NCBI GenBank assembly: GCA_043753995.1
Contig: JAYUVP010000323.1
Span: 1-24,583, forward strand
DNA: 24,583 bases
Direction: 5' to 3'
DNA from: Fibrobacterota bacterium
Lineage (GTDB): Bacteria; Fibrobacterota; Fibrobacteria; UBA11236
Position 1 is the first letter of the stretch, and each line of letters begins with the position of its first letter. Shown here piece after piece: positions 3,487 to 12,119 of this stretch. Both the position numbers and the translations under genes were made by a program. The notes beneath the pieces are model-generated. The model searched no databases. It was not told the origin of the DNA and was given only the letters and a program-made list of their open reading frames with translations.

Positions 3487-4092
3487 ATGGCTCACACTCT
3501 CGCCCCCCTGCCTTATGCGCATGATGCGCTCGAACCCCATTACGACAAAGCCACGCTGGAAATCCATCACGGCAAACATCATCAGACCTATGTCAACAAC
3601 CTAAATGCCGCCCTCGAAGGCCATCCTGATTTGCAAGCCAAAAGTCTCGACGCTTTGCTCAGCGATCTCAGTGCCGTGCCCGAAGGAATTCGCCGCAAGG
3701 TGATCAACCAAGGCGGCGGCATTTGGAATCACAATTTGTTCTGGGCCGTCATGGGCCCGAAAAAAGGTGGCGCTCCCACCGGCAAAATCGGCGAAGCCAT
3801 CACCGCCTCCTTCGGTAGCTTCGATGCTTTCAAAGCCAAGTTCAAGGAAAGCGCTCTCGCCATGTTCGGGTCGGGCTGGACCTTCCTGCTCGTGAACAAA
3901 AGCGGCGCACTCGAAATCCAAAACTGGGGCAATCAAGAATGCCCAATCTCCACCGGCCTCAAACCCGTGCTGGTTGTCGACGTTTGGGAACACGCCTATT
4001 ACTTGAAATTCCAAAACCGCCGCGCCGACTGGGTCGATTCCTGGTGGAATGTGGTGAATTGGGACAAGGTGAACGAGTTGTACGCGGGGTAA
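3487..4092 (+). CDS. sodA: Superoxide dismutase, Fe/Mn family (probably Mn-type)
   Basis: HHGKHHQTYV, GGGIWNHNLFW, FGSGW and DVWEHAYY motifs. GGG and NQ residues are Mn-type determinants. ATG 3487 is preceded by GGAGA. Confidence 0.93.
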   Translation: MAHTLAPLPYAHDALEPHYDKATLEIHHGKHHQTYVNNLNAALEGHPDLQAKSLDALLSDLSAVPEGIRRKVINQGGGIWNHNLFWAVMGPKKGGAPTGKIGEAITASFGSFDAFKAKFKESALAMFGSGWTFLLVNKSGALEIQNWGNQECPISTGLKPVLVVDVWEHAYYLKFQNRRADWVDSWWNVVNWDKVNELYAG

Positions 4093-4446
4093 GTTTCCCC
4101 CTCGGTCGAGCCTCCTCGGCGCTTTGACGCGAAAGTCTGATGTCACCGCAATCCGGGCGGGACTCGGACAGCCGCCTCTCCACAAGTGTCGAGGCGGAAC
4201 TCGCCCGTCCGTTTGCGGTGACCGCCTTTCGCTCGCCATCCCCAGGGGACTCGGCGCGCGGGTTCACCTTTCCCGCCTTATTCACGCCAGGAGCATTTCC
4301 CTGGAGCCGAATTGCGCCTGCGGGGTCTTTCCCTTCCCCCTCTGCCCCAAGGGGCGCCTTCCCTGTAGCGCGTAGGTTACTCCCCGGAATTGGTGTTTCC
4401 CTGGGGGCGCGCGAAGGCGGTCGGCGCTTTGCGCCTTCCTGTTCGC
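4086..4446 (+). repeat. Structured intergenic repeat element, copy 1 (candidate ncRNA or non-autonomous element)
   Basis: Collinear blocks shared with 9838-10210: 4093-4120 (27/28 identical), 4238-4255 (17/18), 4295-4307 (13/13), 4316-4334 (18/19), 4409-4446 (38/38). Nested stems 4129-4135/4226-4232 and 4142-4151/4213-4222. Confidence 0.85.
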
Positions 4447-4449
4447 CCG

Positions 4450-5475
4450 CTACACCTTATAATACTCGCGATACCAATCGACGAAGCGCGCCACGCCTTC
4501 GGTCACCGGGGTGGCGGGCTTAAAGCCGACATCCTTTTCCAAATCGGAAACGTCGGCCATGGTATCGGGCACGTCGCCAGGTTGCAAGGGCAGCATATTC
4601 ATTTCGGCTTTGACACCGAGCTTCAGCTCCAAAGCGTGGATATAGTCGAGCAATTCCACGGGCTGATTATTGCCGATATTGTATAGGCGATAGGGTGCCT
4701 TGCTCGTAGCGGGATCCGGATTCATGCCATCCCATTGTTCATTGGCCGTGGCGACATTAAAAAGGGTGCGATACACGCCCTCGACGATGTCGCCGACATA
4801 GGTGAAATCGCGCTTGTGATGGCCGTGATTAAAAACATTGATGGGCTTGCGGGCAAGCATGTTTTTGGTGAACAAGAACAAAGCCATGTCGGGGCGGCCC
4901 CAGGGGCCATAGACCGTGAAAAAGCGCAGGCCGGTGGTGGGTAGGCCGAAAAGGTGGCTATAGCTGTGGGCCATCATTTCATTGGCTTTTTTCGTGGCGG
5001 CATAAATTGACAAGGGATGATTCGCCCCTTCATGCACCGAGAAAGGCATGTGCAAATTGCCGCCATAAACCGAACTAGTGGAGGCATAGGTGAGATGCTT
5101 CACGCCGTGATGGCGGCAGGCTTCCAGAATATTGGTAAAGCCCACGATATTGCTGTCGATATAGGCGCGCGGATTCTCAATGCTATAGCGCACGCCCGCT
5201 TGCGCCGCCAAGTTGACGACACCGTCTGGCTTGTATTCAGTAAAGGTTCGGGTGACCAAGTCGTTATCAGCCAAGTCGCCTTTCACGAAGGAAAAGCGCC
5301 CGTCCTGATTGAGCAAGCCGAGCCGGGCTTCTTTCAATTTTGGGTCATAATAGCTGTTGAGATTGTCCAGGCCGACGACGCGATGTCCGCGAGCCAGAAG
5401 CAATTGGCTCAAATGGAAACCGATAAAACCGGCGGCGCCGGTGACAAGCACATTGGCTGGAGAAGTAGCAAGCAT
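4450..5475 (-). CDS. NAD-dependent epimerase, UDP-glucuronate 4-epimerase type
   Basis: [49 protein letters not shown] and RDFTY motifs (extended SDR, Uge/LpsL/CapI-like). Confidence 0.93.
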
Positions 5476-5566
5476 GGTCGGTAATGTTAAGAATTTGAGA
5501 TGGCTGGAAGGGTCATGTCAAGGAGGCCTTGCTACCTTGGCAGCCCGGTTTTAAGCAGGAGATCCT

Positions 5567-5884
5567 ATGTCGACAGCATTCAGCAATGTCACCGTAACAC
5601 CCAAGGCCAATATTTATTTCGATGGCAAGGTGGTGAGTCATACCGTGCAATTCGCCGATGGCAGTAAAAAGACCTTGGGGCTCATTTATCCCGGCGAATT
5701 CAAATTCAATACCGGGGCGCCCGAACGCATGGAAATCATCGCTGGCACATGCCGCGCGCGCCTCAAAGGCGAAGTCGAATTCAAATCTTTTGCCGCTGGA
5801 ACCCATTTCGACGTGCCGGGCAATGCCCATTTCGACATCGCCGTCGATAGCGGCATCGCCGAATACATTTGCAGTTTCTTGTAA
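5567..5884 (+). CDS. ppnP: Pyrimidine/purine nucleoside phosphorylase (DUF1255/YaiE cupin)
   Basis: KANIYFDGKVVSH...KTLGLIYPGEFKFNTGAPERMEI...EYICSF. AGGAGA RBS upstream. Confidence 0.9.
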   Translation: MSTAFSNVTVTPKANIYFDGKVVSHTVQFADGSKKTLGLIYPGEFKFNTGAPERMEIIAGTCRARLKGEVEFKSFAAGTHFDVPGNAHFDIAVDSGIAEYICSFL

Positions 5885-5949
5885 GTCCCTGATTTTCGAA
5901 AGTCGGGATGCCGTCTTGTGATTAGGGCATAGGCTGGGAATCGGGTGAT

Positions 5950-7239
5950 TCACAGCCGCCATAATTCGACGCCAGCGGGTTTTTGATCCCGAGGCAGGAC
6001 ATGCTTCAAATCCGCTACCACGCCTTGGCCGTCCTTGAGGCGCTTGCGCACCAAATCCCATCCACCTTGCTTATAGGCCTGGTGGGATACGGCCACGATG
6101 ACACCGGCCGCGGGCCGCAATTCTTCCATGGGCATCAATTGGATGCCGTATTCGTGCTCGGCTTCTTCGGGATATGCCATCGGATCGGTGACTTGCACTT
6201 CGACTCCATAGCGTTTCAATTCCGAAATGATGTCCACGACCTTGGAATTACGCAAATCACTCACATTTTCTTTAAAAGTGAGCCCAAGGATGGTGACTCG
6301 CGGCTTGCCTCCGTCGAAACGGGCGCAACCGCCTTGAAGCAATAAGCGAATGACTTCCTGGGCGACAAAGGAGCCCACATTGTCATTGATGCGGCGACCG
6401 CTCAAAATCACTTGCGGGATATAGCCCAAGGCTTCGGCTTTATGCGTCAGATAATAGGGATCGACGCCGATGCAATGGCCGCCGACCAGGCCGGGTGTGA
6501 AGGGCAAAAAATTCCATTTGGTGCGAGCCGCTGCCAGCACATCCATGGTGTCTATGCCGATACGGTGAAAGATGAGAGACAGCTCATTGATCAAGGCGAT
6601 ATTCAGATCGCGCTGGGTGTTTTCAATGACCTTGGCGGCTTCGGCGACCTTGATGCTGGCGGCCTTATAGACTCCGGCCTTGACCACCTTGGCATAGGTC
6701 GCGGCCACGATGTCGAGGGTTTCCTCGTCCATGCCCGAAACCACCTTGGTGATTTTGGTGAAGGTATGTTCCTGATCGCCGGGATTGATGCGCTCCGGAC
6801 TATAGCCGATTTTAAAATCGACCCCGCATCTCAGGCCTGAAGTCTTTTCGAGGATGGGCAGACAAACTTCCTCGGTGGCTCCTGGATAAACCGTGCTTTC
6901 ATAAACCACGATATCGCCCTTCTTGAGCTGACGGCCTACGGTTTCCGAAGCGCGGCGCAAGGGGGTAAAGTCGGGCCGATTAGCCCCATCCACGGGGGTA
7001 GGCACGGTGACAATCAGGAAATCGGCGAGTTTCAACCGATTTTCGTCGGTGGTGAAATCGACGTCTATGCCGCGAAATTCCTCAGGTGCCACATCCCGGT
7101 TGCGATCGCGTCCCTGCTTCAATTCCTCCACGCGCTTGGCATTCACGTCGAAGGCAATGACCTTGCCTTGTTTGCCAAAATAAAGGGCTATGGGCATGCC
7201 CACATAACCCAGTCCGATGACGGCGATTCTTCTTTCCAT
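5950..7239 (-). CDS. Nucleotide-sugar dehydrogenase, UDP-GlcNAc/GalNAc 6-dehydrogenase (TviB/WbpO-like)
   Basis: GLGYVG, ESTVYPGATEE, YSPERINPGD, AEAAKVIENTQRD, GGHCIGVDPYY and GLTFKEN motifs. Confidence 0.93.
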   Translation of the reverse strand: MERRIAVIGLGYVGMPIALYFGKQGKVIAFDVNAKRVEELKQGRDRNRDVAPEEFRGIDVDFTTDENRLKLADFLIVTVPTPVDGANRPDFTPLRRASETVGRQLKKGDIVVYESTVYPGATEEVCLPILEKTSGLRCGVDFKIGYSPERINPGDQEHTFTKITKVVSGMDEETLDIVAATYAKVVKAGVYKAASIKVAEAAKVIENTQRDLNIALINELSLIFHRIGIDTMDVLAAARTKWNFLPFTPGLVGGHCIGVDPYYLTHKAEALGYIPQVILSGRRINDNVGSFVAQEVIRLLLQGGCARFDGGKPRVTILGLTFKENVSDLRNSKVVDIISELKRYGVEVQVTDPMAYPEEAEHEYGIQLMPMEELRPAAGVIVAVSHQAYKQGGWDLVRKRLKDGQGVVADLKHVLPRDQKPAGVELWRL

Positions 7240-7304
7240 GGACCCTAGGTTATCAAAAGATTACCCCCCAAGTCACCTATATTTATCGAAGAGGTCACTT
7301 TTTT

Positions 7305-8432
7305 ATGCCCATATCTCCCGCCATCGATGAAGCCAAGGTTTTACAGGCCTTGAAGGCCGTACGCGATCCCGATTTACACAGGGACATTGTCGAGCTCGGT
7401 TTCGTGAAAAACATGAAAATCGAAGCTGGCAAGGTGGCCTTCGATGTCGAATTGACAACCCCGGCTTGCCCCGTCAAGGAAGACCTCAAGCGTCAATGTG
7501 TCGAATTCGTTTCGCAATTGCCCGGCGTGCAAAGCGTCGAAGTGACCATGACGGCCCAGCCTGTCAAAGCCACGGGTGGCAAGCGCACCGAGAATTTGGA
7601 AAAAGTCCGCCATATCGTGGCCATCGCCTCGGGCAAAGGCGGCGTGGGCAAAAGCACGGCCACCGCCAATCTGGCCGTGGCCTTGGCCCAAACCGGCGCC
7701 CGCGTGGGCGTGCTGGATGCCGACATTTACGGCCCCTCCATGAACATGATGTTCCATGTACAAGAGGCGCCTGTGCTGGACGACAAGCAAAAGCTGCATC
7801 CGGTCATCGTGAACGGTATCAAGATCGTTTCCATGGCCATGTTCGCCGACGATGAAAAGCCGGTGATTTGGCGCGGCCCCATGGTATCGCAGATGATACA
7901 GAATTTCGTTCACAATGTGATTTGGGGCGAACTCGACTATTTACTCATCGACATGCCCCCGGGCACCGGCGACGTGCAATTGACCTTGACCCAGAGCGCC
8001 CCCTTATCGGGCGGAATCATTATCACCACGCCTCAAGACGTCTCCGTGCTCGACGCCAAAAAAGGCCTGAAAATGTTTCAACGCGTCTCGGTGCCAGTGC
8101 TGGGTGTGGTCGAGAACATGAGTTATTTCATTTGTGATCAATGCGATAAGAAGCACTATATATTTCGCCAAGGTGGCGGCCAGCGCATTTCCACCTCGCT
8201 TGGCCTTCCCTTTTTGGGCGAAGTGCCGCTTGAGCCCGAAGTGGCCGTGGGTGGAGACCTAGGCACGCCCATCGTGCGCCGGGCCCCCGAGTCGACCTCG
8301 GCCAAGGCCTATCGCGACATCGCCGGTGCCATGGCCTCCCAGCTTTCCATCCTCACCGCTGCCCGGGGCGATGTACTCGGCGACTACGAATACAAATGGG
8401 AAGATTTGCCGATGGCTGAGGCCACGGTTTAA
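7305..8432 (+). CDS. apbC: Mrp/NBP35 family Fe-S cluster carrier ATPase with N-terminal DUF59
   Basis: N-terminal DPDL..DIVELG...LTTPACP (DUF59), SGKGGVGKST deviant Walker A, DADIYGPS, WRGPM, DMPPGTGD, ENMSYFICDQC. Confidence 0.93.
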   Translation: MPISPAIDEAKVLQALKAVRDPDLHRDIVELGFVKNMKIEAGKVAFDVELTTPACPVKEDLKRQCVEFVSQLPGVQSVEVTMTAQPVKATGGKRTENLEKVRHIVAIASGKGGVGKSTATANLAVALAQTGARVGVLDADIYGPSMNMMFHVQEAPVLDDKQKLHPVIVNGIKIVSMAMFADDEKPVIWRGPMVSQMIQNFVHNVIWGELDYLLIDMPPGTGDVQLTLTQSAPLSGGIIITTPQDVSVLDAKKGLKMFQRVSVPVLGVVENMSYFICDQCDKKHYIFRQGGGQRISTSLGLPFLGEVPLEPEVAVGGDLGTPIVRRAPESTSAKAYRDIAGAMASQLSILTAARGDVLGDYEYKWEDLPMAEATV

Positions 8433-8480
8433 GCCCCCTGGGGCCCCTGTGATGCGCATTCCTTCTACCTTTGGTTGGCC

Positions 8481-8780
8481 ATGAAAATTACCGCCCCAGT
8501 TCGCATCCACCGCGAAGCCGATAACGCCTTGCGAATCGCCTGGAATGACGGCTCGGTGGACACCTTTCCTGTGCATGCCTTGCGCCTAGCTTGCCCCTGC
8601 GCTGCCTGCGTGAATGAGTGGACAGGTGAAAAAATCCTCGACGCCGCGCGGGTGCCGGCCGAGGTCAAGCCGGTCAAAATCTTCTCGGTCGGCCGATACG
8701 CCATGGGCATCCATTGGAGCGATCGCCATACTACGGGCATTTTTTCCTATGACTACCTCAAAAAACTGGCCTTGAAATAG
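8481..8780 (+). CDS. DUF971 / GBBH-like N-terminal domain protein
   Basis: LRIAWNDG, LRLACPCAAC and VGRYAMGIHWSDRHTTGIFSYDYL motifs. Confidence 0.88.
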   Translation: MKITAPVRIHREADNALRIAWNDGSVDTFPVHALRLACPCAACVNEWTGEKILDAARVPAEVKPVKIFSVGRYAMGIHWSDRHTTGIFSYDYLKKLALK

Positions 8781-9006
8781 GGTCAATACCGAGGCTTAAC
8801 TCTTCATGGTTGACAAGGCCAAAGAAAGGCCGCCACAATAGAGTTGTCGGTAAGGTCGTACCCTTTGGAACAGGGGTCGGCTGTCAGATTGACAGAAGCT
8901 GTTTACCTGGTGGATAGGACCATCGGACTTTGCAGCTTGTGTCATGTCAGGATAGGGTTGTAAATTTCGCCGACAGGCGACAATAGCTTGCAAGGGGCCG
9001 ACATCC

Positions 9007-9837
9007 GTGGTTGATTATAACGAACAGCTTTACTTCCGCGACCTTTACCGGCACGAAGTCATTACGCCGGACGAGGAAAAAGAGCTGGTCTTGAAGGTCA
9101 AGGTGGGTGACAGCAAGTCACTCAATCGCCTCATTCTCGGCAATTTGCGCTTTGTGGTTTCCATTGCTCGCCGCTATCAGGGCAAGGGCCTCTCCCTGCT
9201 CGAACTCATCAATGAAGGCAATCTCGGACTTTACAAAGCCGCCAAGCGCTATGACCCCAGCCGCGAAGTGAAATTCATTTCTTATGCGGTGTGGTGGATT
9301 CGCCAAAGCATACAGAAGGCCTTATTCGAGCAAGTCGGCGCGGTGCGCGTGCCTCCCAATAAATTGGCGCTCGTCAATAAGTTCAAGAAAGCCTTGGTGC
9401 AAAACGGCGGTGATTACGAAAAGACCGTCAATCTCCCCGATTTCGTCGAGCATGAAAAAGAAATCGCCGAGGTCATGGAGAAAATCGCCGACGTATCGCT
9501 CAATGCCCCCATTGGCGCCGACAGTGATGCCCGCGATCCCGTCACCACCTTGCTTGACGTCCTTGGCAATGAGGGCAATCAAGAGCCCGACAGCGAAAAA
9601 GCCGAACTCGCCCGCGTCATCGATTCGGTGCTCGGCCAAATGAGCGAGCGCGAGGAAAAAGTCCTGCGCATGTATTACGGCATCAACTATTCCCGCGAAT
9701 TCACCCTCGACGAAATCGGCAAAGAGCTCAAGCTCACCCGTGAACGCGTTCGCCAAATCAAAAACAAGTCGTTACGGAAATTACTGCGCAGCAAGGACAG
9801 CAAGGATCGCTTGTTGCCTTTTGTGTCGGAACCGTAA
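9007..9837 (+). CDS. RNA polymerase sigma-70 factor, RpoD/RpoS-like, lacking region 1.1
   Basis: NLRFVVSIARRY, ELINEGNLGL, KFISYAVWWIRQSI (region 2) and TLDEIGKELKLTRERVRQI (region 4.2). GTG start with AAGGGG upstream. Confidence 0.92.
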   Translation: MVDYNEQLYFRDLYRHEVITPDEEKELVLKVKVGDSKSLNRLILGNLRFVVSIARRYQGKGLSLLELINEGNLGLYKAAKRYDPSREVKFISYAVWWIRQSIQKALFEQVGAVRVPPNKLALVNKFKKALVQNGGDYEKTVNLPDFVEHEKEIAEVMEKIADVSLNAPIGADSDARDPVTTLLDVLGNEGNQEPDSEKAELARVIDSVLGQMSEREEKVLRMYYGINYSREFTLDEIGKELKLTRERVRQIKNKSLRKLLRSKDSKDRLLPFVSEP

Positions 9838-10390
9838 AGGGAGAGGTTTCTCCCTCGGTCGAGCCTCCTCGGCTTTGTACGGGGTGGCTGATGTTCGGCC
9901 ATGAAAATTGGGCTCGCGGGTCCTCGGCCCAGGAGCGGCCCTGGAGTCAATGGCCTGCGGAGCGAGCCCGATTTTCAGGCGCTCACCGCCACCCCTCCGC
10001 AATCCCCAGGGGATTCGGCACGGGACCGGCCCCCCACTTTAAGCGGTTCTAGTGCCGGTAGTATTTCCCTGGAGCAAGCAATGCCTGCGGGGTCTCTCCC
10101 TGCCCTCTCAACGGGGGCCTGGCCCCCGTAACGCCCCTGTGACTCCCCCTGTTTGTTTATGCATTTCCCTGGGCGCGAAGGCGGTCGGCGCTTTGCGCCT
10201 TCCTGTTCGCGTGCTTCCGGGGTATTACCTATGGGCTTGCAGGGGATATCGGCGTGCGCCAAGGGCTGCGGTGGACGTCTCCGAAGAGGCTCGCTCCGCA
10301 GCGAGTGAAGCGAGTGAGGACCGCGAGCTTCTTCGGAGACGGAAACGTCTGCGGCCCGCCCCTTTTTGCGCGTTTCCCTGGGGGCTTGCG
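9838..10390 (+). repeat. Structured intergenic repeat element, copy 2, with an extra 3' hairpin module
   Basis: Blocks 9846-9873, 10002-10019, 10063-10075, 10083-10101 and 10173-10210 match copy 1. Stems at 9881-9888/9988-9995 and 9902-9917/9962-9977. Extra 18-bp stem 10277-10294/10323-10340. Confidence 0.85.
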
Positions 10391-10409
10391 ATTTCGGATA
10401 GGATTTGAT

Positions 10410-12119
10410 TTACCTAGGTGACCTTGGTTCCAATTGCAAAGCATTTAGGTTGCGGCCCGAGACGGTCCATGGTTTGAGCCTAGCCGCCCTTCTATGGGTC
10501 CGGGAGGATTTGGATCCTTTGAGAAGAGGGCTGGGTACGGCGGTCTGTAAAAATTTCAGCAAGGTAGGCACGTGAATATGTCCATACCCCGAGGCTCCTG
10601 AATGGGGTGGCTCGACTTGGGCCGTATAAACCAACCGGTCTCCCATGTCGCTCACCTGGGGTATCGAATGCATATGGGCCAAGGGGCCACCTCGCAATAC
10701 GCCGAGAGAAACAATGCCTTGCGAGACGAGGCTGTCATACCTGAAGAGAAAAATTCCTGAAGAATTGGGTTTGGCCTGATTGGCGGGAGATTCGTCATGG
10801 GCAAGGGCCAAGGCCATCAGTGGTGTAGGATAGCGAATCGAGTCCTGGGGGAAAACAGTTAAGCCTAATGGCCTTTGGGTCACCGTGGACATCACGCGGG
10901 CTTCAGGCAAGATGCCATCGGGTCTTAGGGTTTGCACCCGAATTTCCACACGATAAGGCTGGCTCAAACAACAGGTTCCTGGATAGGCCTGGTTATCGCG
11001 ATAGGCCATCCATTCATGGTAATCGGGAATTTTATCGCCATCGATGTCGTCGAATTGAATTCCCATCCTCAAGCCATCCCGATGAGGCGTTGATTTGAGG
11101 ATGCGCGATTCGGGTGAGGAATCGCCGGTAAAATGACGAAAGCCTTCCACCAGCCATTCTTGCGAACCCTGGCTTATCCTTCGGGTAATGGCGAGCAAAT
11201 CGGGTAGGGAATCATATCTCCATAGTGAGTCCCGATAATTTCCGACGGCAAGAGTGCGTGTCAAACCCAAACGCGATGGCTCGGTAGAATCAGGTAGATC
11301 CATATCGCCACGGGCCGTCAATAATTTTTCGGTGAGATTCTTTAAACTCTCCGAGTGCACGAGTAGGACTTGTATGCGACCGGGATGTCCTGCCAGGCCC
11401 ACGGCGATATCCGGATAATCGTCCCTATCGAATTTGCCAATAGTTACAGAGGCGGGACTTCCCTTGAGCAAAACCGAAGTGTCGGGGCGCGCCTCCAAGC
11501 ATTGCTCCAAGGAACAACCAGGCTGGAGGGTTCTAAAATTGTAGAGGTCTAGGAAATAACTCGAATCAATTCTTCTCACCATGGCTATGCCTCGATAGAA
11601 CTTATCTGGAAACGCTTCCATGACAAGCATCACATCGGCATATTTTCCTGGAGGCAAGGATTTTTTTTCTAAAAGTCCAAAACCATGATACCCTCCCCTT
11701 GTGGCCCATAAACCAATGGAATCGCTCCAGCCATTATGGGAGGAGCCCTCAAGCACCAAATGGTCGTGAATCACGTCAGCGCCATTATGAAATAAACCCA
11801 AGGCTAGGGGCCGAAGTTGCATCTGGAATGCATTCGCACCCTCGGGCAATTGTCCCCCATCGGTCAGCCCACGGGAATCGTTAAAGACGCCCGTATCCCA
11901 CTTTAGCTCCGAATTCACCGGCTCGTTGGGGAACGAGAATAATCCACCGCCAAAATCACCTTGCAAGGCGAGGGGGAGGGTGGCGTGAAAATCGCGGAAG
12001 ATTTGTAGCGAATCCTCTCGCGCCAGGGCGGATTGATTTCCGGAAGGAGAATTTGCTGCGGAAACGGGTATTAGAAAAATCGTCAGTGTTAGCCAGAATT
12101 CATGCCTTTGCATATTCAC
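10410..12119 (-). CDS. Secreted hypothetical protein with degenerate FG-GAP/VCBS-like repeats
   Basis: Signal peptide-like N-terminus (FWLTLTIFLIPVSAA). Ca-binding-loop-like motifs GKFDRDDYPDIAVG, GNYRD...DSLPDLLAI and DDIDGDKIPDY. Start could be GTG 12119 or ATG 12113. Confidence 0.7.
   Translation of the reverse strand: MNMQRHEFWLTLTIFLIPVSAANSPSGNQSALAREDSLQIFRDFHATLPLALQGDFGGGLFSFPNEPVNSELKWDTGVFNDSRGLTDGGQLPEGANAFQMQLRPLALGLFHNGADVIHDHLVLEGSSHNGWSDSIGLWATRGGYHGFGLLEKKSLPPGKYADVMLVMEAFPDKFYRGIAMVRRIDSSYFLDLYNFRTLQPGCSLEQCLEARPDTSVLLKGSPASVTIGKFDRDDYPDIAVGLAGHPGRIQVLLVHSESLKNLTEKLLTARGDMDLPDSTEPSRLGLTRTLAVGNYRDSLWRYDSLPDLLAITRRISQGSQEWLVEGFRHFTGDSSPESRILKSTPHRDGLRMGIQFDDIDGDKIPDYHEWMAYRDNQAYPGTCCLSQPYRVEIRVQTLRPDGILPEARVMSTVTQRPLGLTVFPQDSIRYPTPLMALALAHDESPANQAKPNSSGIFLFRYDSLVSQGIVSLGVLRGGPLAHMHSIPQVSDMGDRLVYTAQVEPPHSGASGYGHIHVPTLLKFLQTAVPSPLLKGSKSSRTHRRAARLKPWTVSGRNLNALQLEPRSPR

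Follow-up and report, generated by a model that had tools for sequence, protein, structure and literature searches.

What kind of element sits, in two diverged copies, at the stop codons of sodA and of a sigma factor gene in a Fibrobacterota bacterium? The copies lie in a stretch of 24,583 nucleotides (nt) of contig JAYUVP010000323.1 (assembly GCA_043753995.1), here called the window, whose coordinates are used throughout; the source genome is labelled G000 and its contigs C plus a number, the two window elements are copy 1 and copy 2, and G277, G019, G278, G012 and G021 are other genomes, with loci labelled L plus a number. An earlier sequence-only reading had described two structured non-coding elements of about 360 nt with five shared blocks (one an identical 38-mer), four named stem pairs and 5' hairpins, each starting at the stop codon of a plus-strand gene and facing a convergent gene. 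All of these features are present at the positions given there. That reading had proposed either a functional structured RNA or a mobile repeat that folds as single-stranded DNA (ssDNA). The mobile repeat has held up: insertion is dispersed, copies are tied to IS91/ISCR transposases and to origin-side (oriIS) ends, and the mini-hairpins are of a DNA type and on the bottom strand; a functional RNA is not favoured. Both elements are probably non-autonomous derivatives of a rolling-circle insertion sequence (IS) of the IS91/ISCR type, their core being its left, termination-side (terIS) end. On this reading the repeat would be no new class of RNA but the terIS-side end, expanded in this lineage, of an IS91 element like ISCR.

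The two copies belong to a large family. BLAST and iterated profile searches of G000 found 73 regions and a related 92-member subfamily, Z, which had no match in the reversed genome. Merging gave 154 rows, and after removal of 11 without a core (module-only pieces and one unrelated element with terminal inverted repeats) there remained, instead of two copies, 143 core-bearing ones: 30 long, 21 short and 92 Z. Three parts make up the short form of about 88 nt: terminal hairpin, imperfect stem and tail hairpin. In long forms the loop also houses a rod-like module, X, together with a second hairpin; some long forms add the 38-mer and an inverted X, and an inverted pair of X modules is found in nine. 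The first inserts of copies 1 and 2, earlier judged unalignable, are two variants of this one structured module: a single covariance model matches both, together with a third, inverted copy in copy 2, all three having been in its training alignment. Copy 2 accordingly does not end at 10210; the shared region is as first described, and the element continues to about 10417 through the inverted X and an oriIS-like end. The model has 46 matches in G000, three of them self-complementary, and X modules also occur by themselves at several loci. Because identity to the nearest copy is mostly 80–90% (medians 81–87%, maximum 96%), the family is old in this genome.

The flanking enzyme that the sequence-only reading had thought worth seeking is of the IS91/ISCR type. 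Both matches of an IS91-domain search of G000 adjoined repeat copies. Among 15 hand-picked clusters of transposase remnants, with the 5'-most piece of each taken, six have a same-strand copy within 250 nt upstream, an arrangement expected for 0.4% of random and 2.6% of intergenic positions (p = 1.2e-6); one further remnant shares its decayed unit with a counted one. The upstream copies come from all three subfamilies (long, short and Z), in the same position and on the same strand. Copy 2 is 76% identical over 300 nt to a copy 49 nt upstream of a Zn_Tnp_IS91 remnant, and both arms of copy 1 are matched at 83–89% by another transposase-linked copy (C355:5968). As had been noted, the window encodes no cognate enzyme; remnants lie elsewhere in the assembly and an intact gene in a sister genome. 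Since neither copy contains an open reading frame for a Y2-HUH transposase, copies 1 and 2 are not themselves autonomous members of the family. The G000 assembly, which is 97% complete, yielded no intact IS91-type transposase, and because only remnants were found the family is probably inactive here. The same assembly gave no match to PF01797 (the REP-associated tyrosine transposase, RAYT; REP, repetitive extragenic palindrome), and neither a reverse transcriptase nor an IS110 enzyme was found in it; it contains seven tyrosine recombinases. No recurring mobility enzyme emerged when 285 neighbouring proteins were compared all against all.

An intact relative is found in the sister genome G277, whose uninterrupted 532-aa transposase contains PF14319 and PF04986. 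A repeat core starts 230 nt and ends about 110 nt upstream of this gene, an oriIS motif lies downstream, and IS homology runs in constant order from the first hairpin through the leader into the transposase. Five genomes of genus g3 hold 23 core matches, eight with a same-strand transposase within about 120 nt and five more with the conserved IS leader; in these sister copies homology begins at the first hairpin, and the flanks are mostly unrelated. A profile of 17 sister copies that included no G000 sequence had the two arms of copy 1 and of copy 2 as its four best matches in the window (E 3e-6 to 3e-3). The comparisons thus show, at the level of sequence, that the core is homologous to the IS left end, which occupies a fixed position and strand upstream of transposase genes. 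Its identification as terIS follows from position and boundary, and the role in termination is predicted. A profile search did not detect the sister IS leader downstream of G000 copies. The linked sister transposase is 33% identical to ISCR1 Tnp and shares its domain pair with the IS91 family (IS91, IS801, IS1294) and ISCR elements.

The other end of the IS is represented as well. Downstream of the sister transposases lies a conserved motif that ends in GATTTACCTAT and is mostly followed by GCTC or GCAC. It resembles the ISCR1 oriIS, a motif of the same type and likewise about 200 nt after the gene (232 nt in the plasmid record from which it was taken; a 232-bp oriIS region is named in a part of PMC6218425). 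A strict pattern of this motif has 19 matches in G000 and none in the reversed control; one, at window position 10406, is on the same strand as copy 2 and 6 nt past its repeat region. A matrix trained on relatives, including two G021 sequences, gave 21 matches above 18 bits in G000 against one in the control. With a matrix free of G021, an oriIS above 12 bits was found within 200 nt downstream, on the same strand, in seven of 143 copies with full flanks (153 examined), and in none of those 143 in each of the three other orientations. Copy 1 lacks an oriIS. Copy 2 has one at its right end, and because terIS side and nearby same-strand oriIS are both present it looks like a whole gene-less mini-element reaching from 9838 to about 10417. 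For 17 of the 21 strong oriIS matches the following tetranucleotide could be parsed (GCTC 8, GCAC 2, GCCC 2, GCCA 2, others 3), which would fit a GCTC-like target as in IS91/ISCR elements. At family level the repeat matches an IS end, the outcome that the sequence-only reading had named as one that would remove the novelty, though the searches made found no described element with such an end.

In the mechanism that we envisage, the central loop of the core would have been enlarged in this lineage with rod-like hairpins (X and the B/C blocks), while the 38-mer hairpin (module E) and the inverted X were appended. A Y2-HUH transposase acting in trans may have nicked oriIS and peeled off the bottom strand (a bottom-strand ssDNA circle is given as the IS91 substrate in a passage of PMC13181058) and may have recognised the folded terIS as ssDNA; the circle would then have inserted next to a GCTC-like target without duplication. 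Copies within genes would have been lost, so that those close behind stop codons remain. Copy 1 and most other copies would keep only the terIS part, either because the right part was lost or because the hairpin alone was copied.

Several results weigh against an origin from an IS91/ISCR left end. Nine of the 15 transposase remnants have no copy upstream, and two abut an oppositely oriented one (C224:35427 and C32:7829). A profile restricted to the 10 IS-linked sister copies matches the window weakly (E 0.011, 0.28 and 0.31) and loses one arm; related transposases in G019 and in a metagenome contig have another leader and no core, and the core was seen at none of 43 more distant transposase loci. 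The X covariance model matched none of 38 other genomes of the order, so that most of the 360 nt has no traced source. No terIS cleavage site was found at copy 5' ends, and no nucleotide-level empty site was found. A clear nearby oriIS accompanies only the seven copies counted above, and the tetranucleotide after that of copy 2 is GTGA, not GCTC. Against the bottom strand as the acting form, the Z stem has an invariant G-T position that forms a pair on the top strand, and GCGNAGC mini-hairpins are divided 6:6 between the strands in long copies, where X occurs in both orientations. Finally, 143 cores against about 21 oriIS motifs is the reverse of the ratio known for IS91 and IS801, in which, according to a section of PMC3189936, oriIS is essential and one-ended products lose terIS.

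This imbalance bears on how the copies spread. Had full elements simply decayed at random, leader, transposase or oriIS sequence should still be common to close relatives; nearest copies reach 88–96% identity, yet more than 40 nt are shared downstream in only two nearest-neighbour pairs. Short oriIS motifs do drop below detection sooner than long hairpins. Either the right part of most copies was removed precisely, or the hairpin moves alone. Seventeen short-type copies share one 3' end base, a sharp common end of the short core that is partly circular because copy boundaries were set by the same homology, which does not affect the scarcity of longer shared flanks. The ratio of cores to oriIS, the scant shared downstream flank and the sharp 3' end together support spread independent of oriIS. 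A tentative extension of the IS91/ISCR reading is therefore a REP-like system run by an IS91/ISCR Y2-HUH transposase, in which the terIS hairpin would be re-inserted as a unit without oriIS, at TTRR-type sites behind stops, and grow by nested modules; we regard this as possible and as clearly less probable than the left-end origin itself.

The insertion sites fit into this question. With gene positions from a simple in-house gene caller, 13 of 25 long copies are flanked by convergent genes (background 14.8%), and 19 of the 21 co-directional cases start no more than 25 nt from the stop; in the short and Z forms such enrichment is weaker or missing. Where no stop abuts, a TTRR word, part of either the element or the target, stands ahead of the hairpin in 12 of 26 copies (expected 5.8%). 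A site preference that includes TAA, TAG and TGA, combined with loss of insertions inside genes, would give the behind-stop pattern. The 5' flank reads TTRR(N); some copies without the 5' arm begin with GCCC-like words, two of them behind oriIS-like letters. In these two (C38:743-821 and C249:8506-8975) it is the 5' arm of the first hairpin that is missing, and CCTAG or CCTAT, then G, stands just before, as would be expected from a circle junction or from insertion into a hairpin loop. Oriented copies, read through, have no terminal inverted repeats of the classical kind seen in miniature inverted-repeat transposable elements; their two ends are different hairpins.

The hairpin might instead be a small mobile repeat in its own right, either REP-like or parasitic on IS91, that lands near IS91 transposase genes, that some IS lineages adopted as their left end and that the IS91 transposase or another enzyme mobilises. 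The related IS copies that lack a core, the two contacts with remnants in opposite orientation, the solitary X modules and the near absence of shared sequence past the hairpin unit between close copies would all suit such a history. It seems unlikely all the same, since IS homology in G277 starts exactly at the first hairpin and proceeds in constant order into the transposase, three G000 subfamilies keep the same position and strand, and neither RAYT nor a reverse transcriptase or IS110 enzyme was found in the 97%-complete assembly.

Folding and covariation bear on whether the copies are instead functional structured non-coding RNAs, or 3'-end RNA structures such as terminators or stabilisers, domesticated under host selection. 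The plus strands of copies 1 and 2 fold as RNA with z-scores of -3.2 and -3.3, none of 100 shuffles being as stable, and RNA z-scores range from -2.5 to -5.3; internal loops in X are invariant, and the placement of long copies between convergent genes and close behind stops would suit a 3'-end structure. The covariation that the sequence-only reading had seen in the stems is real. In X, 17 of 29 pairs are compensatory, a count that no shuffle of 500 reached and that slid controls left far behind, although kinship of copies can inflate it; in the Z stem four outer positions covary beyond all 2000 shuffles. Covariation in a dispersed repeat does not by itself prove a functional RNA. As DNA, the two strands fold to a similar degree (z -2.2 to -4.1, with 25 shuffles for each). 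Of 91 Z copies, 83 and 85 retain a TC/TC mismatch, equivalent to a tandem G.A pair on the bottom strand. GCGNAGC mini-hairpins lie on the bottom rather than the top strand in Z (36:2), in the short core (10:0; 46:2 for these short subfamilies together) and in sister copies (12:2). According to PMC13037366, this motif is very stable in DNA and the RNA counterpart tested much less so. The strand bias favours ssDNA over RNA as the probable acting form and would be consistent with a circular bottom-strand ssDNA intermediate.

Other tests point the same way. Single-base stem mismatches had been read as G-U pairs on the plus strand, an argument that fails because a noisy ungapped count over 30 module copies gave 19 G.T and 19 A.C mismatches. 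No Rfam family matched at gathering score (the only hit was MIR9657, E 0.91, 27.8 bits against 53), and a hammerhead was weighed for the CTGATG loop, by inspection only, and set aside. Terminators around copy 1 are not in excess over shuffles (2 against 1.4), and the TTRR flank, present also where no stop abuts, can explain the closeness to stops. At orthologous sodA and sigma loci, a comparison that the sequence-only reading had proposed, the repeat is absent from relatives (0 of 56 loci, some overlapping), whereas the empty site that the comparison might have shown at nucleotide level did not turn up. Host-selected RNA structures are on this evidence improbable. A classical REP mosaic moved by RAYT, its Y1 enzyme lost or unassembled and its IS91 link due to chance, is hardly credible: the copies are intergenic, palindromic, mosaic and often at gene 3' ends, and the nine inverted X pairs recall a REP doublet, but PF01797 has no match, none of the listed 5' ends of copies shows a GTAG-type foot, and the association with IS91, far above chance, together with the oriIS statistics largely refutes it.

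The search for X outside G000 was broader. A pattern for the module matched none of 295 other genomes of the phylum, and 185,579 species gave three single matches. One, in Bdellovibrionales, was rejected as chance, being single-copy, within the end of a protein-coding gene and without a covariance-model match. Scans of viral contigs gave no match; among plasmids, copy 2 had no match at DNA level and the sister core had only short, weak ones. Among sequencing runs, no RNA data set was listed as containing the repeat. Two DNA contig sets from one study contained no contig joining across copy 1 or copy 2.

Returning to the window, the parts of both copies and the neighbouring genes are collected in Table 1.

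Table 1. Genes and repeat modules around copies 1 and 2 (window coordinates)
Feature	Position	Strand	Remark
sodA (Fe/Mn superoxide dismutase)	3487..4092	+	stop codon inside first hairpin of copy 1
Copy 1: putative terIS-side repeat, long form, without oriIS	4086..4446	+	
Copy 1 terminal hairpin and 5' arm of core stem	4086..4121	+	homologous to the left end of sister-genome IS (17-copy sister profile, E 3.2e-6); 83% identical to C355:5968 over 41 nt
Copy 1 rod-like X module, variant X1, inserted	4124..4238	+	E 3.1e-8 (training set included X1 itself)
Copy 1 B/C blocks around a variable hairpin	4238..4307	+	
Copy 1 3' arm of core stem and tail hairpin, short-core type	4314..4365	+	89% identical to C355:5968 over 54 nt
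Copy 1 38-mer hairpin (module E)	4409..4446	+	
NAD-dependent sugar epimerase	4450..5475	-	convergent neighbour of copy 1
Sigma-70 family factor	9007..9837	+	copy 2 begins at the base right after its stop
Copy 2, entire: putative whole IS91/ISCR mini-element without genes, from terIS side to oriIS	9838..10417	+	
Copy 2 terminal hairpin and 5' arm of core stem	9838..9873	+	E 2.7e-4
Copy 2 X module, variant X2, inserted	9875..10002	+	
Copy 2 3' arm of core stem and tail hairpin, type of intact sister IS	10079..10139	+	
Copy 2 38-mer hairpin (module E)	10173..10210	+	
Copy 2 second X module, inverted	10255..10364	-	absent from the sequence-only reading
oriIS-like right end, TTTGATTTACCTAG	10404..10417	+	14.1 bits
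569-aa protein, no NCBIfam match	10410..12119	-	convergent neighbour of copy 2

The sodA stop lies within the first hairpin of copy 1 (4086-4101), at a position that is G in most copies, and the protein is exactly as long as its closest ortholog (in G012), which suggests that this stop was kept or restored by selection. At the other element, the convergent 569-aa gene takes its final codons and its stop from the oriIS-like motif. The sigma factor gene and sodA are convergent neighbours in nine of 14 fetched regions of relatives, the other five being stretches without sodA. In the window the block from the epimerase to the sigma factor gene is inverted relative to sodA, with one repeat copy at each breakpoint; inversion by simple recombination between copies 1 and 2 was rejected because the copies are direct, not inverted.

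Further loci are recorded here as observations in their own right. In G000, a Z copy and an oriIS lie 1.5 kb apart around a TetR-like gene named by eye (C179:650-2233), a possible captured-gene unit, and more Z and oriIS units are clustered on C149. Another element of about 170 bp with terminal inverted repeats occurs at C273:21441-21910, inside an X module, and at C284:8503-8674. In G277, the oriIS end stands twice in tandem behind the intact transposase (L067:2760-2830), and about 470 nt upstream of the left end there is a gene that looks tRNA-like by eye. At L131, L135, L136, L138 and L139 (G019, G278), several sister copies start just a few bases past a hairpin that, with its T run, resembles a terminator.

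How the repeats compare with known systems follows from these features. The terIS side of ISCR1 also starts 24 bp after a stop codon. The IS91 terIS is described, in part of PMC13181058, as one imperfect subterminal palindrome, whereas the end found here is a multi-hairpin structure of 90–560 nt with exchangeable modules. Known one-ended derivatives keep oriIS and lose terIS; here the terIS end outnumbers oriIS about 7 to 1 (143 against 21). Closest in size are the miniature IS801 derivatives, listed as 229, 360 and 679 nt in a section of PMC3189936, which are likewise gene-less pieces of an IS91-family element moved by a transposase in trans; they are, however, contiguous right-end fragments without the left-end stem-loop, and the repeats here keep the left end, most of them without the right.

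REPs are thought to move alone with RAYT, as stated in a portion of PMC6006769. REP, BIME (bacterial interspersed mosaic element) and REPIN repeats, served by RAYT (TnpA-REP, a Y1 HUH enzyme), resemble the family in their many intergenic imperfect hairpins, mosaics and inverted doublets and in having a HUH enzyme that works on ssDNA; they differ in that the enzyme here is of the Y2 IS91 type, with RAYT not found in the assembly, no GTAG foot and much longer units.

Helitrons are rolling-circle elements of eukaryotes with a RepHel enzyme, a hairpin at the termination end and many non-autonomous copies. The likeness of their terminator hairpins and non-autonomous copies to the present repeats is one of analogy, as the enzyme differs. 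Our literature searches, with most subscription journals, ISfinder/TnCentral and supplements outside their scope, found no account of an amplified IS91 terIS or of IS91 in Fibrobacterota.

IS91/ISCR elements are major vehicles of gene capture, and the termination end is their poorly understood part. If the hairpin does move without oriIS, a HUH transposon would have become a REP-like repeat across a genome by a second route, with a Y2 enzyme in the part that RAYT plays for REPs, and oriIS would not be indispensable in every case. Natural variants of one left end, about 140 of them and well diverged, provide with their covarying stems and invariant mismatches a map of what a Y2-HUH enzyme may recognise.

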